A stretch of DNA of 64,000 bases from Spirochaetia bacterium (GCA_038204425.1 JBBRCZ010000003.1:150383-214382), one strand, 5' to 3'; positions 21,001 to 27,000 are shown, counted from the first letter of the stretch. A program made the numbers.

Positions 21001-24000
21001 AGATATTCTTTCCGATAGTATAAAAGTTCCGGGGGGGGGTACTATGCAACTGAAGACTCGTTTGATAGCAATCAACAAAAAGCTGCTCGTTTTGGGGATA
21101 CTATTGTCTTATTTGGGCAGTATATCGGCCCAAGAATTACAAGGGCCAGAATCGGATGCTTTGCTTGCTCCAAAGATTGAGTACTCTGATAAGTTGCTAC
21201 CTGCAATTGAGCTGATAATTCCGAGGCTTAAACTCAAATCCGCAAGCCGAAGTCCACTAGTAAACCTAAGTCCCAATCAGGCGAATGACGCCCGGACATT
21301 GGCAACAATCAATAAAGATGCGCAAAAATTGATTCACGCTTCGGCGATTGCAGTTGCGTCGACCAATCTGGGATTGGAAGTCGTCGCCCTGTCGGCTCAG
21401 AACGCTAACCAACTTGTCAGCAAGCAGCTAGAACTTGCGCCAATCAAGCAGCTTATTGTTCCCGTTGATAGCGAAGTTGTGGTTCAAGCTCTTGTGCGAC
21501 CAAAAACTACTACAACTACCATTGCTAGGCCTGCCTTGACGGTTGCGCGCTTATCGAGTACTAGCACTACTGTCAGGCCGGTAGCGCGAGCTGCTTCTAC
21601 GAGCACAACTACGGTCCTTCGGAGCGCTTACGTTAAGGATCCGGTTCCAAGTCCAGCTGCCATTAGGGCCAAAGCGCTGGAGGCCATCAATTATGCCCAG
21701 GCCCAGAGTTCTACGCTGGTTGATGCGCCTTTGGTCCAACAAATCCAGTCTCCGACCACGTCATTACCAAGTCTTAGTCAAACAGTGTTTGGGCAGCTCG
21801 GGATCCCCGTAGAAATTGGTCTCAAGGGACGCGGATGGCTCTATCTTGGCTCGGTTGGACAGCCAAACGCCGTGGCGTTCTTGGAAAAAACAGCAGGTTT
21901 TGACGCTGAAAAGTTTAGATTCAGAAATGAAAAAACCGGTATGGTAAGCCTGCAGTTCCAGCGACAGGACCTGCAAAGCGGTTTGACCGAGAAGGCAGTT
22001 GTGGTACTCACTATCAGTCCTCGTAGCAACTCAGCTGTTCTCCCAATCAATAGTAGCATTCAAAATCCAACAACTGGAATGCAACAGCAACAAAACTCTC
22101 CTGCCACAAGCGCTACCGGAAGTTTTGAACCAGAGTATCCCTTGGTTTCAGCAGCTGCTGGCAATTCTCAAAATCGAGCTGGTTCAAACTGGAATCAAAC
22201 AGGGCCGCGCAGTGAGCTAGGCGCCAACAGCCCAGAAACAAGTGCGGCCCAAGCAAATTTGAGTGTAGAAAGTACCAGTGCCTTAGACGCTATGAAGGTT
22301 ACTGGTGATGCTGAAAGTATGTTTTCTATGGCAGCGTCGTGGGAAAAAGGTAAAAATGCAGTCCCCGCACGAGATCTGTACAAAAGAATCCTCAAAGAAC
22401 AAACAGCCTATGAAAAAACGGACCAAGTAATGTTTGCTTTAGCAAAACTACTAGAAAATGATGCGGTCGTGCGGGATTTACAAGCTTCGCGTGACCTTTA
22501 CGTGCAGCTACAAAATTTGTACCCTTACAGTAGCTTAGTAGAGCCAGCGCGGGAGCGGATGCGCTACTTGCAGCGTACCTTCTTTAGGCAGTAAGACAAA
22601 GCAATTTCGCAAATATATGGGTGCTATAGCTCCAAAGACTTCCAACTCAGCCAACAAGTCAAATTGACATCATCCATAGCTGGCGATAGAATGCCAGCAG
22701 ATAAAATTGGATTTGTTGTTTTGGCCTCGAGGAGTTTATAGTGAGTAAGAATGCCCTCCAGCTTGAGTTGTTTCTATCAGTGTTTCGCAACATGGTGGCG
22801 TCACGAGAGATAGACATACTGGAACAGGACTATACCCAGCGCGGTGAAGCGTTTTTTCATGTTTCTGGCACTGGTCATGAGAACATTGCCTTCCTCAATA
22901 CACATTTGATTCCAGCTGACTATCTCCATTGTCATTATCGTGACAAATCCTTGATGTTGGCACGGGGCTTGAGTATAGAACAGTTTTTCTTAAGTCTTTT
23001 TTGTAAAGACAATAGTCACAGTCGTGGTAGGCAAATGTCTGCTCATTTGTCGGATCCGGACCTTCACATAATGAGTTTAGTCGGACCGGTTGGAAACAAT
23101 GCCCTTCAAGCGGTGGGAGCAGCTTCGGCTATAAAAAACCAAAGTCAGAACCCAATTGTACTATGTGGTCTAGGCGATGGAACATCGCAACAAGGTGAAG
23201 TGCTAGAGGCGATTGCTCATGCAGTTCGCCAGACACTGCCTGTCTTGTTTGTGATCCAAGACAATACCTGGGCAATTTCAACCAAAACCGAAGGGCAGAC
23301 TTTTTATAATACACCTGATGGCGATGCTGAGCAGTATTACGGCATTCCTATTGTGCGTGTCGATGGCAAAGATGCGCATAGTTGTCACGACGTATTTGGC
23401 GAGGTAGTAGCGTCTATGCGCAAAACTCGTAAGCCGGCCATAATTATTTTTAAAGTTGCTCGTATTAACAGTCATACCAACGCTGACGACCACCGTATGT
23501 ATCGCAGTGCCGAAGAAATAGAGGCCACGCGAGCCAGTGGTGACCCCCTAGTCCCCCTAGAGGCATGGTTCCAGACCCAAGGTATTGCCAGCCAAGACTT
23601 AAGTGCTATCCGTCAAGAGATTAAAGAAACGGTCCGCAAGGCAGCCGAGGCAGCTCAATACAGCCCAGAACCCAAGGCCATCTACGACGCCAAAGCGGTA
23701 TTACCAGCAAGTTTATTTGACTTAGCCAGAGAAAATAGAGGTGATGAGGCCCAGGGACAGGTGGTTATGCTTGAGGCCCTTAGAGTGACTCTCAAGAACC
23801 ACTTGGAGTCTGATGCAGACGTCTGTTTGTTTGGAGAAGATATTGAGGACCCCAAGGGTGATGTTTTTGGCGTCACCCGAGGCCTTAGTCAGGCTTTCCC
23901 TGATAGAGTTGTCAATTCGCCCTTGGCAGAGGCTACCATTGTGGGTGTAGCAGTAGGGCAGGCCCTTGCTGGCAAAAAACCTGTGGCTTTTTTGCAATTT

Positions 24001-27000
24001 GCCGATTTTTTCCCTATCGCCTTCAATCAGATATTTGCTGAACTGGGCTCGATGCACTGGAGAACTGACGGTGCTTGGAAATGCCCGGTAATATTAATGG
24101 TCACCTGCGGTGGCTACAAGCCGGGCTTGGGTCCATTTCATGCTTCGAGTATGGAGTCGATTGCCGTTCACACTCCAGGTGTGGACGTTTTTATGCCTTC
24201 TTCGGCGGCAGATGCGGCGGGTCTTTTAAATGCGGCCTTTGAGTCAAAACGACCCACGGTCTTCTTTTATCCCAAGAGTTGTCTCAATGATCGCAGTCAA
24301 GCGACATCCACCGATATACACAAACGATTTGTTCCGATTGGAAAAGCACGCTTGGTGCGATCGGGTAGTGACTTTACCTTTGTTGGCTGGGGCAATACCG
24401 TGGCTTTGTGTCGTCAAGCCGCAGACGAACTAAGTAAAGTGGGGATTAACAGCGATGTAATTGACCTGAGATCGCTCTTTCCATGGGATCAAGAAACTGT
24501 TTTAAGTTCCGTAAAACGAAGTCGTCGTATGATTATTGCTCAAGAAGATAGTCATAGCGCCAGTTTGGCAAGTGAAATAAGTGCCACTATCTCTGAACTG
24601 ATAGTTGGCGAAATTGTAGTCAAAAGAGTCTCGCGACCTGACACGTACGTGCCTTGTAATTTTGGCAACCAATTGGAAGTTTTGCCATCCTACCAAAAAA
24701 TTCTAGAAACCGCCGTTGAGATTTTAGGTGCAAGTATTAGTTGGCAAAAAGACCAGGTTGCCGAAGACGGATACGCCTTTATTGAGGCAGCCGGATCTAG
24801 CCCTTCAGATGAGTCAGTCACCGTTATCCAATGGCGAGTAAAACCTGGTGATGTGCTCAAACCAGGCATGCCGCTAGCTGAGATGGAAGCAGATAAGGCT
24901 GCTTTTGAGCTTTCTTGCCCAATCGGCGGCACGCTGACTCAAGTCTTGGTTCCAGTGGGCATGATGGTAAAGGTTGGTACACCTTTACTGGTGGTTGCTA
25001 TAGAGGGGCGTAAACCAGTAATTAAACCACTTACAAGAGAAAACCCAGGTATACCAACTATCGTTTTACCTGAAATCCAAAAATCAAAAAGCATAGTCAG
25101 TGACCACCACGAGCTACATGAGTCTGGCCGCTACAATCGGCCCAAGTTTTCACGGGCTATGCCGGTTGCTGGTATTGCTGGGATAGTGGCAGTTCCTGGC
25201 TCTATTGCAGTATCCAACACACAGATAGCCTCCAAAAGTAGTGACTGGGATGCTCAGGATATTTTCAAGCGGATCGGTATCGAGAGTCGTTACTGGGTGG
25301 CTGAGAGTGAAACCACAACCTCATTAGCTATTAAGGCAGCACAAAAATTGCTCAAGGCGCATAAACTAAAGGCGTCTGATTTGAGCGCGGTCATCTGTAC
25401 AACCGGGACTCCCGATATAATGACGCCTAGCCTTGCTTGTTTGGTGCTTGATGCTTTGTCCAAAGATCTCAAAGAGTCGCCCTTGATTCCGGCTTGGGAT
25501 ATTAATGCTGCATGCTCAGGCTATTTATATGGCCTTCAGGCTGCCTGGGATCACTTGTTGCACGAGCCTAGTGGCAAAGTTTTGTTGGTAAGCAGTGAGG
25601 TGCTTTCTAGAAAAACTGACCCCGTTGACTCAAGTACCGCACCGATCTTTGGCGACGCGGCAACGGCAACGCTGATACTTGGCTGGGACAACTTTAAACA
25701 GTTTAAGTGGTTGATAGAACGACCCGTTTTGGCTGCCAAGGCCGAAAGTGGCAAAGCCTTGAGTGTGCCGCTCAAGACTGGCGAATATGTCCACATGGAT
25801 GGACCCAAGGTTTTTCAAGAAGCGGTGCGCCATATGGTGCTACTTCTAGAAAAAGCCTGCGCACAAAGTGGTATCAAGGTTAGTGACCTAGATTTAGTTG
25901 TACCACATCAGGCCAACCAAAGAATCATAAATGCTGTCAGACAAAAAGCAAAACTCGACGAAGATCAGGTTTATAGTAATATCCGACACTACGGAAATAC
26001 TTCATCATCATCGATTCCGATTGCCTTGGCCAAAATTTTGGACGAAGGCCACCAAGCCAAGTCGATAGGTCTATGCGCCTTTGGTGGAGGCTTTACGTTT
26101 GCAGGAGGCATTCTTCGTGTGCCCGATCAACAAAACGCAAACTTTGCCAGTCAGGAAGAATGAATTAAAATGAACAAGGTTTGGTAGATTAGATGCTAGA
26201 AAAAGTAAGTTTGGCCTTTAGTGATATTATTAGAACAGTTGCTGGCAAGGCGAGTGTAACAGAAAAAAATGTAGAAGAGGCTGTTGAACAGATAAAGCTT
26301 GCACTGCTTGATGCTGACGTTAGTGTCCGAGTGGTCAGGCGATTTGTCAATCAGACCTTGCAAGAGGCAAATGGCGAAAAGGTACTGCGCTCGGTTAATC
26401 CCGGGCAACAGTTTATAAAAATTGTTCATGACAAAATGGTTGCCCTCTTGGGGGATACCAAGCAAGACCTTCAGCTAAGAGGACCAGACACTGCCAGTGT
26501 TATTCTATTGTATGGCTTGCAAGGCTCAGGAAAAACTACAAGTGCCGGTAAGTTGGGCTTACGATTAAAGAAGCAAGGCCGCAAAGTACTCTTGGTTGCG
26601 GCTGACTTGGTGCGGCCCGCTGCGATCGAACAGTTGGCAATCTTAGGGCAGCAGCTTGAGATCGACGTTTACCGCGAAGATGGAGCTACAGATCCGGTCA
26701 AAGTTGCCAAAAACGGCGTTAACTTTGGCAAAAAAAACCTCTTTGACACGATAATTATTGACACGTCGGGTCGCATGCAAGTTGATGAACCTTTGATGAA
26801 AGAATTGCAGCGACTCAGAGACAGCGTCTCACCGCTTGAATCCTTGCTAGTTGTAGATGCAATGACCGGTCAGCACGCGGTAGAGATCGCGACAGCCTTT
26901 GACCAGAACCTCAGTCTGACTGGTCTAATTTTGACCAAGTTTGACTCTGATACCCGTGGTGGGGCCGCTCTCTCATTGAGATCGGTAACGGGCAAACCAA

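Follow-up and report, generated by a model that had tools for sequence, protein, structure and literature searches.

A spirochaete protein joining 2-oxoacid dehydrogenase E1, a lipoyl domain and a FabH-like KAS III in one chain: a candidate CoA-free starter of fatty-acid synthesis

Where does the acyl group go when a 2-oxoacid dehydrogenase E1 and its lipoyl domain are fused to a FabH-like (KAS III) domain, in a chain that has no E2 core? The question is raised by a gene in a 64,000-nucleotide stretch of the genome of a Spirochaetia bacterium (GCA_038204425.1, JBBRCZ010000003.1:150383-214382), here called the window. The reading frame, P0001, opens with GTG and runs over 1140 codons without an internal stop (Table 1). 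The promoter-like site ahead of it is a weak indication, and the promoter scan overall showed no enrichment, with 5 sites compared to a shuffle mean of 8.1. Pfam matches follow one another along the chain as E1_dh (residues 17-313), Transket_pyr (343-515), Transketolase_C (534-646), Biotin_lipoyl (692-751), ACP_syn_III (920-979) and ACP_syn_III_C (1040-1126). At E<=0.01, Pfam detected no chloramphenicol-acetyltransferase-like E2 core (2-oxoacid_dh, PF00198) in P0001, and it gave no match there to the peripheral-subunit (E1/E3) binding domain, or PSBD (E3_binding, PF02817). The motifs EADKA (K719), AACSG (C925), HQAN (H1056) and GNTS (N1086) are all present. An earlier note had described a single 1140-residue chain with these six Pfam rows, no E2 core, a lipoyl-lysine motif and the FabH Cys/His/Asn motifs, and our reading of the frame reproduces that description exactly. 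The AlphaFold2 model of P0001 has a mean pLDDT of 91.8 and a pTM of 0.71, and residues 780-805, with pLDDT <50, form one floppy tether.

Table 1. Positions of P0001, its parts and its start signals, counted from the first nucleotide of the window
Feature	Position	Strand	Details and basis
Promoter-like site TTGACA-17-TAGAAT	22664..22692	+	11/12 consensus positions, ~50 nt before start codon; weak indication
GAGGAG ribosome-binding site	22729..22734	+	6 nt before GTG 22741; read from sequence
Whole ORF P0001, E1alpha-E1beta-lipoyl-tether-KAS III	22741..26163	+	1140 aa, GTG start; Pfam
E1alpha part, residues 17-313	22789..23679	+	ThDP-binding GDG...N (D146, N175), His245; Pfam E1_dh 4.2e-48
E1beta part, residues 343-646	23767..24678	+	Glu397, His467; Pfam Transket_pyr + Transketolase_C
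Lipoyl domain, residues 665-753	24733..24999	+	K719 codon 24895-24897 (EADKA); Pfam Biotin_lipoyl 692-751, 1.3e-12
Linker, residues 754-808	25000..25164	+	KPxTxExPGxPxI (762-774), then disordered tether 780-805; pLDDT, alignment
KAS III domain, residues 809-1127	25165..26121	+	Pfam ACP_syn_III + ACP_syn_III_C, Foldseek
KAS III residue Cys925	25513-25515	+	Alignment
KAS III residue His1056	25906-25908	+	Alignment
KAS III residue Asn1086	25996-25998	+	Alignment
KAS III residue Arg1061		+	Alignment

The residue counts below come from 124 fused proteins, of which 105 are full-length relatives and 19 are further relatives in other phyla. Among solved structures, the branched-chain E1s of Thermus and human come closest to the E1 part. 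HMMER alignment to 1dtw_A/B places H245 at the position of human BCKDH E1alpha His291, H467 at that of E1beta His146, and E397 at that of E1beta Glu76, which we take to be the ThDP-activating Glu. PDB entry 1OLS, by its title, assigns reductive acylation to His291alpha and His146beta'. A ThDP/Mg site can be assembled from D146 and N175 of the alpha part and E397 of the beta part, and H245, N175, E397 and H467 are invariant in 105/105 full-length relatives and 19/19 from other phyla. The E1 half thus retains the residues for acylating a lipoyl group, beyond mere decarboxylation. Its best PDB matches are to the Thermus branched-chain E1 (2.3e-34 for alpha and 3.3e-58 for beta), whose beta chain 1um9_B is also the closest fold to the E1beta part (Foldseek TM 0.92). 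All 16 PDB matches of the alpha half at E<=1e-25 are branched-chain E1s; for the beta half, chains of PDH E1beta reach about the same scores as human BCKDH, and P0001 falls far under the cut-offs of the NCBIfam PDH models. The substrate would more likely than not be a branched-chain 2-oxo acid, giving iso and anteiso primers, with pyruvate or 2-oxobutyrate as the remaining candidates.

The lipoyl domain consists of predicted strands (pLDDT 74-95) and carries no Met-Lys-Met biotin motif. Its K719, the predicted lipoylation site, is invariant (105/105 and 19/19), and the genome has an LplA gene beside its PDH operon. The linker motif KPxTxExPGxPxI is conserved across the spirochaete set, and in the 19 relatives from other phyla the linker spans 37-62 residues, many of them Pro, Ala or basic. 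The lipoyl domain and the KAS III domain of P0001 are 57 residues apart, in the place where an E2 core would be, a spacing far too short to hold one.

The KAS III domain has the FabH fold (Foldseek TM 0.91-0.93). C925, H1056 and N1086 are invariant in 124/124 fused proteins, the latter two as whole HQANxRI and GNTS motifs, and R1061, the equivalent of E. coli Arg249, presumably the ACP-docking residue, is kept in 105/105 and 19/19. The CoA site is different. In E. coli FabH, the CoA adenine is sandwiched by Trp32 and Arg151 and hydrogen-bonded by Thr28, as described in PMC4606726. Equivalents of Trp32 and Arg151 are each found in 0/105 and 0/19 fused proteins and that of Thr28 in 27/105; all three residues occur in 28/28 canonical FabHs of the phylum, this genome's own included. 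Some pantetheine and tunnel contacts remain: Phe157 and Gly209 are kept, as is Asn247 (105/105), and the Arg36 equivalent is present in 87/105. Substitutions typical of the fused set are Phe87 to Thr (101/105), Asn210 to Pro (90/105) and GDGAGA to GDAATA. With the NCBIfam model PRK09352, P0001 aligns end to end and scores 247.5 bits, just under the cut-off of 249, and with TIGR00747 it scores 214.5 against a cut-off of 292.1; the genome's canonical FabH (G000 contig 4) scores 384 and 354, respectively. Judged by these residues, the fused KAS III has lost the acyl-CoA entrance and fully retained the condensation machinery.

In a homologue search with residues 660-1140, the best 120 matches, besides the query's own record, stand at 44-63% identity, all with lipoyl and FabH Pfam domains and nearly all with the E1 domains, just as the earlier note had reported from the same search. 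Its further remark that all named organisms are spirochaetes holds for those best 120 matches only, and the fusion is not confined to that group: full six-domain fusions occur in records from Methylococcaceae, Neisseriaceae, Cysteiniphilum litorale, Rhizobium sp., Opitutaceae, Verrucomicrobia and Sumerlaeota, and partial matches carry the names Planctomycetes, Alphaproteobacteria, Burkholderiales and KSB3. Across at least six phyla, and at 44-54% identity, the fusion remains a single gene with unrelated neighbours. In the tree, the fused KAS III domains group together, and no canonical FabH falls within their clade, whose support is only 0.66.

Two further layouts bear on the role of the KAS III domain. 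Proteins of 511-558 residues from Opitutaceae and Verrucomicrobia join a lipoyl domain, a PSBD and a KAS III domain; they also lack Trp32, and their KAS III resembles the fused clade (31-34% identity) no more than it does canonical FabH (34-39%). Both isolate genomes checked have an E1alpha/E1beta gene pair and no E2 core nearby. By domain order, these proteins look like an E2 in which FabH takes the place of the core, and they form a separate, second lineage. A Planctomycetota protein of 1942 residues, a single MAG record, has the E1-lipoyl-KAS III arrangement followed by a PKS-type KR and a phosphopantetheine carrier domain, an extension that fits a carrier-bound 3-oxoacyl product.

We propose that P0001 is a self-contained, E2-less starter that joins a 2-oxo acid to malonyl-ACP and primes fatty-acid synthesis without CoA, a reading to which we give a probability of roughly 55%. 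Because the E1 chemistry is intact, the E1alpha-E1beta part would bind ThDP, decarboxylate the 2-oxo acid and reductively acylate its own lipoyl-Lys719. At the crux of the scheme, the acyl-dihydrolipoyl arm would meet the KAS III domain, held on its flexible tether of ~26 residues, and a thioester exchange would move the arm's acyl cargo onto Cys925; we infer this transfer from architecture and residue patterns. Since the condensation machinery of FabH is fully retained, malonyl-ACP would then dock at Arg1061 and be decarboxylated by His1056 and Asn1086; the resulting 3-oxoacyl-ACP would enter type II fatty-acid synthesis. The free dihydrolipoamide dehydrogenase (E3) of the cell's other complexes may reoxidise the arm with NAD+, so that the net reaction would be 2-oxo acid + malonyl-ACP + NAD+ -> 3-oxoacyl-ACP + 2 CO2 + NADH, with no CoA. 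Two features count against the scheme: the junction between E1beta and the lipoyl domain is modeled by AlphaFold2 with almost no flexible linker, and P0001 has no E3 docking domain to account for reoxidation of the arm. The idea that FabH replaces the E2 core and is primed from the lipoyl arm had been put forward in the earlier note. It is now partly supported by four independent comparative lines, namely, the loss of the CoA clamp beside an invariant triad and ACP-docking Arg, the lipoyl-PSBD-FabH lineage, the KR-ACP variant, and the spirochaete genome G345 (99% complete), which has one FabF-like KAS and whose sole ACP_syn_III_C match is the fused gene; the acyl transfer itself is still a proposed step. 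Our searches of open-access papers turned up no description of an E1-lipoyl-FabH fusion.

The acyl-lipoyl group could instead visit an ordinary E2 and reach the fused KAS III as acyl-CoA, in which case the fusion would only couple supply and demand. The E2 genes that had been noted elsewhere in this genome are real: there are three ordinary ones, along with two E3 genes and one canonical FabH, and ordinary E2 cores occur in 8/8 carrier genomes checked (G000, G210, G345, G380, G159, G332, G403 and G404). The surviving Arg36, Phe157, Gly209 and Asn247 equivalents would suit such a route as well, but it is hard to reconcile with the absence of the Trp32/Arg151 clamp from all 124 fused proteins, and P0001 has neither a PSBD nor any other E2-docking piece. 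Moreover, no E2 gene adjoins the fusion in the 16 loci with annotated neighbours, and this route, which we consider unlikely, would hardly explain the lipoyl-PSBD-FabH proteins of Opitutaceae. Alternatively, the KAS III domain might act as a plain acyltransferase, handing the lipoyl-borne acyl group to holo-ACP (or CoA) without condensation and leaving elongation to FabF/FabB. KAS III-like enzymes that purely transfer acyl groups do exist, FabH itself has acyl-CoA:ACP transacylase activity on the side, and the ACP-docking Arg is kept. A pure transferase, however, would need neither His1056 nor Asn1086, which serve malonyl decarboxylation and enolate stabilisation and are invariant in all 124 fused proteins; the lost CoA-adenine site speaks against CoA as the acceptor, and the KR and ACP of the Planctomycetota variant fit a 3-oxo product. 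Such a role seems unlikely too.

A different doubt concerns the product, since the same chemistry could lead into a specialised lipid or a polyketide-like compound rather than bulk membrane fatty acids. Most carriers keep a canonical FabH (4/5 spirochaete relatives checked, and G000), the fusion is patchy (9/401 genomes sampled in the phylum), and in one variant a PKS-type KR and an ACP are attached. In G332, moreover, both copies of the fusion are broken: that genome can do without the gene, which it has lost with no replacement. Against a specialised product, there is no biosynthetic gene cluster around the fusion in the 16 annotated loci, where the neighbours are housekeeping genes that differ between loci, and the fusion is the only KAS III in G345. 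We regard this option as doubtful and retain the CoA-free priming of fatty-acid synthesis as the preferred reading.

The nearest known counterpart is the pathway of Bacillus, in which the branched-chain 2-oxoacid dehydrogenase complex (E1alpha2beta2/E2/E3) supplies acyl-CoA primers to FabH. P0001 shares with it the type of E1, the catalytic His pair, the lipoyl arm and, at the receiving end, a KAS III that has the triad; it differs in being one chain with no E2 core, no PSBD and no CoA-adenine clamp, and it apparently skips the acyl-CoA intermediate. The part following E1 resembles the E2 of PDH or BCKDH in its succession of a lipoyl domain (with the DKA lysine), a flexible Ala/Pro/basic linker and an acyl-accepting domain, and the Opitutaceae relatives even keep the PSBD. 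In P0001, however, the accepting domain has the thiolase fold of KAS III rather than the chloramphenicol-acetyltransferase-like core, and, in place of CoA, the active-site Cys is expected to take the acyl group first and malonyl-ACP to receive it from there. Compared to the FabHs of E. coli and of this genome, it shares the fold, the triad, the oxyanion Gly-Gly and the Arg249 equivalent but is only 28-34% identical and has lost Trp32, Arg151 and, mostly, Thr28. In the E1/E2-like system of quinocarcin and naphthyridinomycin, a lipoyl arm is charged by a ThDP enzyme, and its glycolicacyl cargo is delivered to a carrier protein instead of CoA; an E2-type acyltransferase is retained there, no Claisen condensation takes place, and the system is built of separate proteins encoded in a biosynthetic gene cluster. 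P0001 would likewise move lipoyl cargo to a carrier protein, although as a single chain and with no E2-type acyltransferase. Finally, fatty-acid synthesis in Pseudomonas putida can start without FabH through a malonyl-ACP decarboxylase and FabB, as outlined in PMC10869286. Both routes would be alternative sources of the first acyl-ACP or 3-oxoacyl-ACP; the one in P. putida draws on malonyl-ACP alone, whereas the primer of P0001 would derive from a 2-oxo acid by way of ThDP and lipoate.

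The DNA bears out what the earlier note had described, a single chain of six domains: the reading frame of the fused gene is intact (see the table of features), and its 1140-residue product, P0001, matches the Pfam families E1_dh (residues 17-313), Transket_pyr (343-515), Transketolase_C (534-646), Biotin_lipoyl (692-751), ACP_syn_III (920-979) and ACP_syn_III_C (1040-1126). Neither a 2-oxoacid_dh core nor an E3-binding domain (PSBD) was detected in it by Pfam. The AlphaFold2 model of P0001, computed with 105 aligned homologues, has a mean pLDDT of 91.8 and a pTM of 0.71, and confidence is low only in residues 780-805, a disordered tether right before the KAS III domain, and in the last three residues (1138-1140). 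Foldseek pairs the E1beta part with the Thermus branched-chain E1 (TM 0.92) and the C-terminal domain with FabH structures (TM 0.91-0.93), and none of its matches is a solved chain that spans the whole layout. A complex prediction of the lipoyl domain (663-757) against the KAS III dimer (806-1130) scored 0.00; it was run without controls and is neutral on binding.

Coordinates of the fused gene, of other reading frames in the window and of related genes elsewhere
Feature	Sequence	Position	Strand	Remark
Fused ORF (P0001)	window	22741-26163	+	uninterrupted, 1140 codons, GTG start
Ribosome-binding site GAGGAG	window	6 nt before GTG	+	from sequence
Promoter-like site TTGACA-17-TAGAAT	window	22664-22692	+	near-consensus; sequence scan
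516-aa ORF	window	21044-22594	+	directly upstream of fusion; no Pfam match
1083-aa ORF	window	9117-12368	-	no Pfam family at E<=1e-4
Stand-alone 91-aa ORF	window	30700-30975	+	resembles FlhB/YscU export-gate family, C-terminal positions 262-335 of 335 only
Thiamin pyrophosphokinase catalytic-domain protein	window	37530-38408	+	11 kb beyond the ThDP-dependent fused gene
Third 2-oxoacid dehydrogenase set, same genome	L014 (contig 7, outside window)	4264-9566		fused 818-aa E1alpha-beta, E3, E2
Broken fusion copy, genome G332	L054	7823-11315		one of two copies, broken within domains
Broken fusion copy, genome G332	L055	6755-8896		the other copy, broken within domains
Lipoyl-PSBD-KAS III gene	L216	7977-9569		Pfam
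Lipoyl-PSBD-KAS III gene	L219	7956-9632		Pfam
Lipoyl-PSBD-KAS III gene	L226	8001-9575		Pfam
P0257 ORF	L257 (record JAKOSN010000236.1)	9001-14829		1942 aa

Conservation was assessed in an alignment of 105 full-length spirochaete relatives of 1100-1189 aa, to which we added 19 full-length proteins from other phyla and metagenomes that are 44-54% identical to P0001. Ten residues do not vary among the 124: Asn175 (ThDP/Mg site), His245, Glu397 and His467 in the E1 part, and Lys719, Cys925, His1056, Asn1059, Arg1061 and Asn1086 in the lipoyl and KAS III parts. With Cys-His-Asn intact, together with the equivalent of E. coli FabH Arg249, which we take to be the ACP-docking residue, the last domain appears to be built to condense. 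In a HMMER alignment to human BCKDH, His245 corresponds to His291alpha, His467 to His146beta' and Glu397 to Glu76beta'. The two BCKDH histidines are named in the title of PDB entry 1OLS as residues of the reductive-acylation step, and because His245 and His467 match them, the E1 part appears to be built for loading a lipoyl group, beyond mere decarboxylation.

The KAS III domain was compared with 28 canonical FabHs, 27 from genomes of the same phylum and one from the genome that encodes P0001, with E. coli fabH (NC_000913) as the residue reference and positions mapped without gaps from the TGI and FGD anchors. In E. coli FabH, according to an excerpt of PMC4606726, the CoA adenine is sandwiched by Trp32 and Arg151 and forms a hydrogen bond with Thr28.

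Occupancy of the adenine-binding positions (E. coli FabH numbering)
Position	Canonical FabH	Fused, spirochaete	Fused, other phyla
Trp32	28/28	0/105 (Asp 81, Glu 12, other 12)	0/19
Arg151	28/28	0/105 (Pro 49, Tyr 18, Phe 13, other)	0/19
Thr28	28/28	27/105	

Entrance and pocket residues of the fused domain, Phe87 among them, change as a block: Asn210 is replaced by Pro in 90 of the 105 spirochaete proteins, and the GDGAGA motif of FabH becomes GDAATA. Judged by these sequences, the fused KAS III has apparently kept its condensing chemistry and its ACP side and has lost its grip on acyl-CoA, and loss of the clamp would be the pattern expected if the primer arrives on a carrier other than CoA. The exchanges of Trp32 for Asp and of Arg151 for Ser or Pro would also widen the mouth of the KAS III tunnel.

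In an even sample of the phylum the lipoyl and KAS III parts were both matched in only 9 of 401 genomes, distributed over five families. Full fusions, 1105-1173 aa long, are also present beyond the phylum, in records named Methylococcaceae, Neisseriaceae, Cysteiniphilum litorale DSM 101832, Rhizobium sp. P40RR-XXII, Devosia (a MAG), Opitutaceae, Verrucomicrobia and Sumerlaeota; all eight non-spirochaete fusions scanned with Pfam have the six domains. We computed a FastTree phylogeny of 83 KAS III domains, of which 54 are fused: that of P0001, those of the 19 proteins from other phyla and metagenomes, and every third one of the spirochaete set of 105. All 54 group in a single clade that contains no canonical FabH (support 0.66). 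Its non-spirochaete members are basal and partly intermixed with the spirochaete ones, which indicates that the gene has moved between phyla. Genome G332 carries two copies, both broken within the E1_dh and lipoyl domains, one into three ORFs of 204, 507 and 453 aa and the other into scattered pieces; in the congener G380 the gene is intact (1126 aa).

When the lipoyl and KAS III parts together were searched against 1.84 billion cluster representatives, 614 matches had E<=1e-30. The top 150 of them include 36 proteins of 1087-1207 aa in which the match starts at residues 638-720, four of them shown by Pfam to be six-domain fusions. Split forms of the fusion were considered and set aside, most short matches of a separate search being truncated calls: of ten proteins from metagenomes that are closely related to P0174 (454 aa), nine have an ORF of 1105-1151 aa across the match, and in the tenth (L152) the ORF picked by the filter is an overlapping frame of 1715 aa in which Pfam finds no domain. 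The matches among the cluster representatives also include three short lipoyl-KAS III proteins of 442-491 aa (P0302, P0306 and P0354), which begin with a complete lipoyl domain according to Pfam.

Two other proteins from these matches, P0311 (511 aa) and P0349 (534 aa, from an Opitutaceae MAG), consist of Biotin_lipoyl, E3_binding, ACP_syn_III and ACP_syn_III_C, the domain order of a textbook E2 but with KAS III in place of the core. Relatives of this type were found at 41 loci in Opitutaceae and Verrucomicrobia records, two isolates among them, and Pfam confirmed the layout in the three loci scanned; in two of those three the gene comes after pyrG and a DAHP-synthase-family gene. Their KAS III shows 31-34% identity with that of the fused clade and 34-39% with canonical FabH, and because it is no nearer the former than the latter, the lipoyl-PSBD-KAS III protein looks like a joining separate from that of the E1-fused clade. 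It has Glu or Tyr at the Trp32 position and retains Cys, His, Asn and Arg249, and both isolate genomes have an E1alpha and an E1beta gene side by side, on a stretch where no E2 core is encoded.

The surroundings of the fusion are housekeeping genes, with an SMC protein and the 516-aa protein followed by ffh, rpsP, rimM, trmD and rplS. The 516-aa protein resembles spirochaete TPR/BamD-like lipoproteins by language-model scores of 0.90-0.93, which we treat as a lead only, and its gene is not kept next to the fusion in other genomes. The nearness of the thiamin pyrophosphokinase gene is probably a coincidence. The sequencing runs listed as containing the sequence are three metagenome DNA runs, with no RNA run among them. 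Across 16 annotated loci (the present one, seven from other spirochaetes and eight from other phyla) the neighbours are unrelated: no common operon partner was found, and in none of them does the fusion have an E2, E3 or fab gene next to it. Elsewhere in the 2.84-Mb host genome are a PDH operon (LplA, E1alpha, E1beta, E2 and E3), an OGDH pair adjoining sucCD and sdh, and a third set whose substrate NCBIfam leaves undecided. The 818-aa E1alpha-beta of that set is ruled out as the source of the E1 part of P0001, as the two are only 24% identical. The genome has one canonical FabH, next to FabF and FabG.

As to the substrate, the nearest E1 to that part of P0001 is the Thermus branched-chain enzyme. 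All 16 PDB matches of the alpha half at E<=1e-25 are branched-chain E1s, and with the beta half the scores of PDH chains are about equal to that of human BCKDH. The position of Phe87, presumably a primer-pocket residue of E. coli FabH, is Thr in 101 of the 105 fused proteins versus Phe in 21 of the 28 canonical FabHs, which suggests a primer pocket roomier than that of E. coli FabH. Excerpts of PMC4511686 and PMC5303756 report iso-C15:0 and anteiso-C15:0 in Salinispira, related Spirochaeta and Lacunisphaera (Opitutaceae); these are cultured relatives, and the evidence is circumstantial only.

We propose that P0001 primes chain synthesis from a 2-oxo acid without CoA, and put the probability of the whole four-step mechanism at roughly 0.55. 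ThDP-dependent decarboxylation and reductive acylation would load Lys719, in keeping with the conserved residues; Cys925 of KAS III, the domain on the tether, would then take over the acyl group from the dihydrolipoyl arm by thioester exchange; decarboxylative condensation with malonyl-ACP would yield 3-oxoacyl-ACP, for which the conserved residues and a KR-ACP variant speak; and the arm may be reoxidized by free E3, P0001 having no visible docking site. The variant, likewise among the matches to cluster representatives, is P0257, a 1942-aa protein from a Planctomycetota MAG in which E1alpha-E1beta-lipoyl-KAS III is extended by a KR of the PKS type (204 bits) and a domain for phosphopantetheine attachment, with about 235 aa ahead of the KR and about 260 aa past the ACP that match no Pfam family. 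Although known from one record, this extension fits a carrier-bound 3-oxoacyl product.

Three other readings were weighed. A KAS III that acts as a plain acyltransferase to ACP would share the loading steps, and we consider it very unlikely beside the intact condensing residues and P0257. A detour in which the E2 of another complex passes the acyl group through CoA is also improbable, if a little less so: the equivalent of Arg36, a pantetheine contact, is kept in 87 of the 105 proteins, which counts against a non-CoA primer, and ordinary E2 cores are present in all eight carrier genomes tested; on the other side stands the missing adenine clamp. The chemistry could be identical and the product a specialized lipid instead of bulk fatty acids, which we likewise regard as unlikely. 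Canonical FabH is also present in four of five spirochaete carriers; in G345 (99% complete, with a single FabF-like KAS) the fused gene is the sole ACP_syn_III_C match. The comparative evidence supports, short of proof, CoA-free priming, the role in which the earlier note had cast the protein. Evenly poised, in our judgment, is the broader proposition that a ketosynthase receives its acyl group directly from the lipoyl swinging arm, giving a CoA- and E2-free chain start from 2-oxo acids that evolved at least twice (in the E1-fused clade and in the Opitutaceae lipoyl-PSBD-FabH proteins) and is the sole KAS III-type starter in some bacteria.

If CoA-free priming is correct, the lipoyl arm would have a partner of a new kind, an enzyme of Claisen condensation instead of an acyltransferase, and fatty-acid synthesis a fourth start that goes around the acyl-CoA pool. 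Branched or odd primers in some bacteria without a catabolic Bkd complex would be explained. An old idea from work on Bacillus, where the branched-chain fatty-acid synthetase was reportedly primed by 2-oxo acids rather than acyl-CoAs, would be revived. The mechanism is directly testable, as C. litorale DSM 101832 and the Rhizobium strain P40RR-XXII are cultured carriers, and the gene could serve in engineering as a single-gene module for branched fatty acids.

In titles and abstracts of the open-access literature, a scope that excludes subscription journals and supplements, we found no description of a lipoyl-KAS III or E1-KAS III fusion. Compared with known enzymes, P0001 has the features of an alpha/beta-type E1, of a lipoyl domain and of the condensing half of KAS III. 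It is not an E2, having neither core nor PSBD, and it differs from an acyl-CoA-primed FabH in that the adenine clamp is absent and the score falls just below the NCBIfam cut-off. Its closest functional counterpart would be the Bkd complex together with FabH, which P0001 appears to resemble in its working, with the E2/CoA step cut out.
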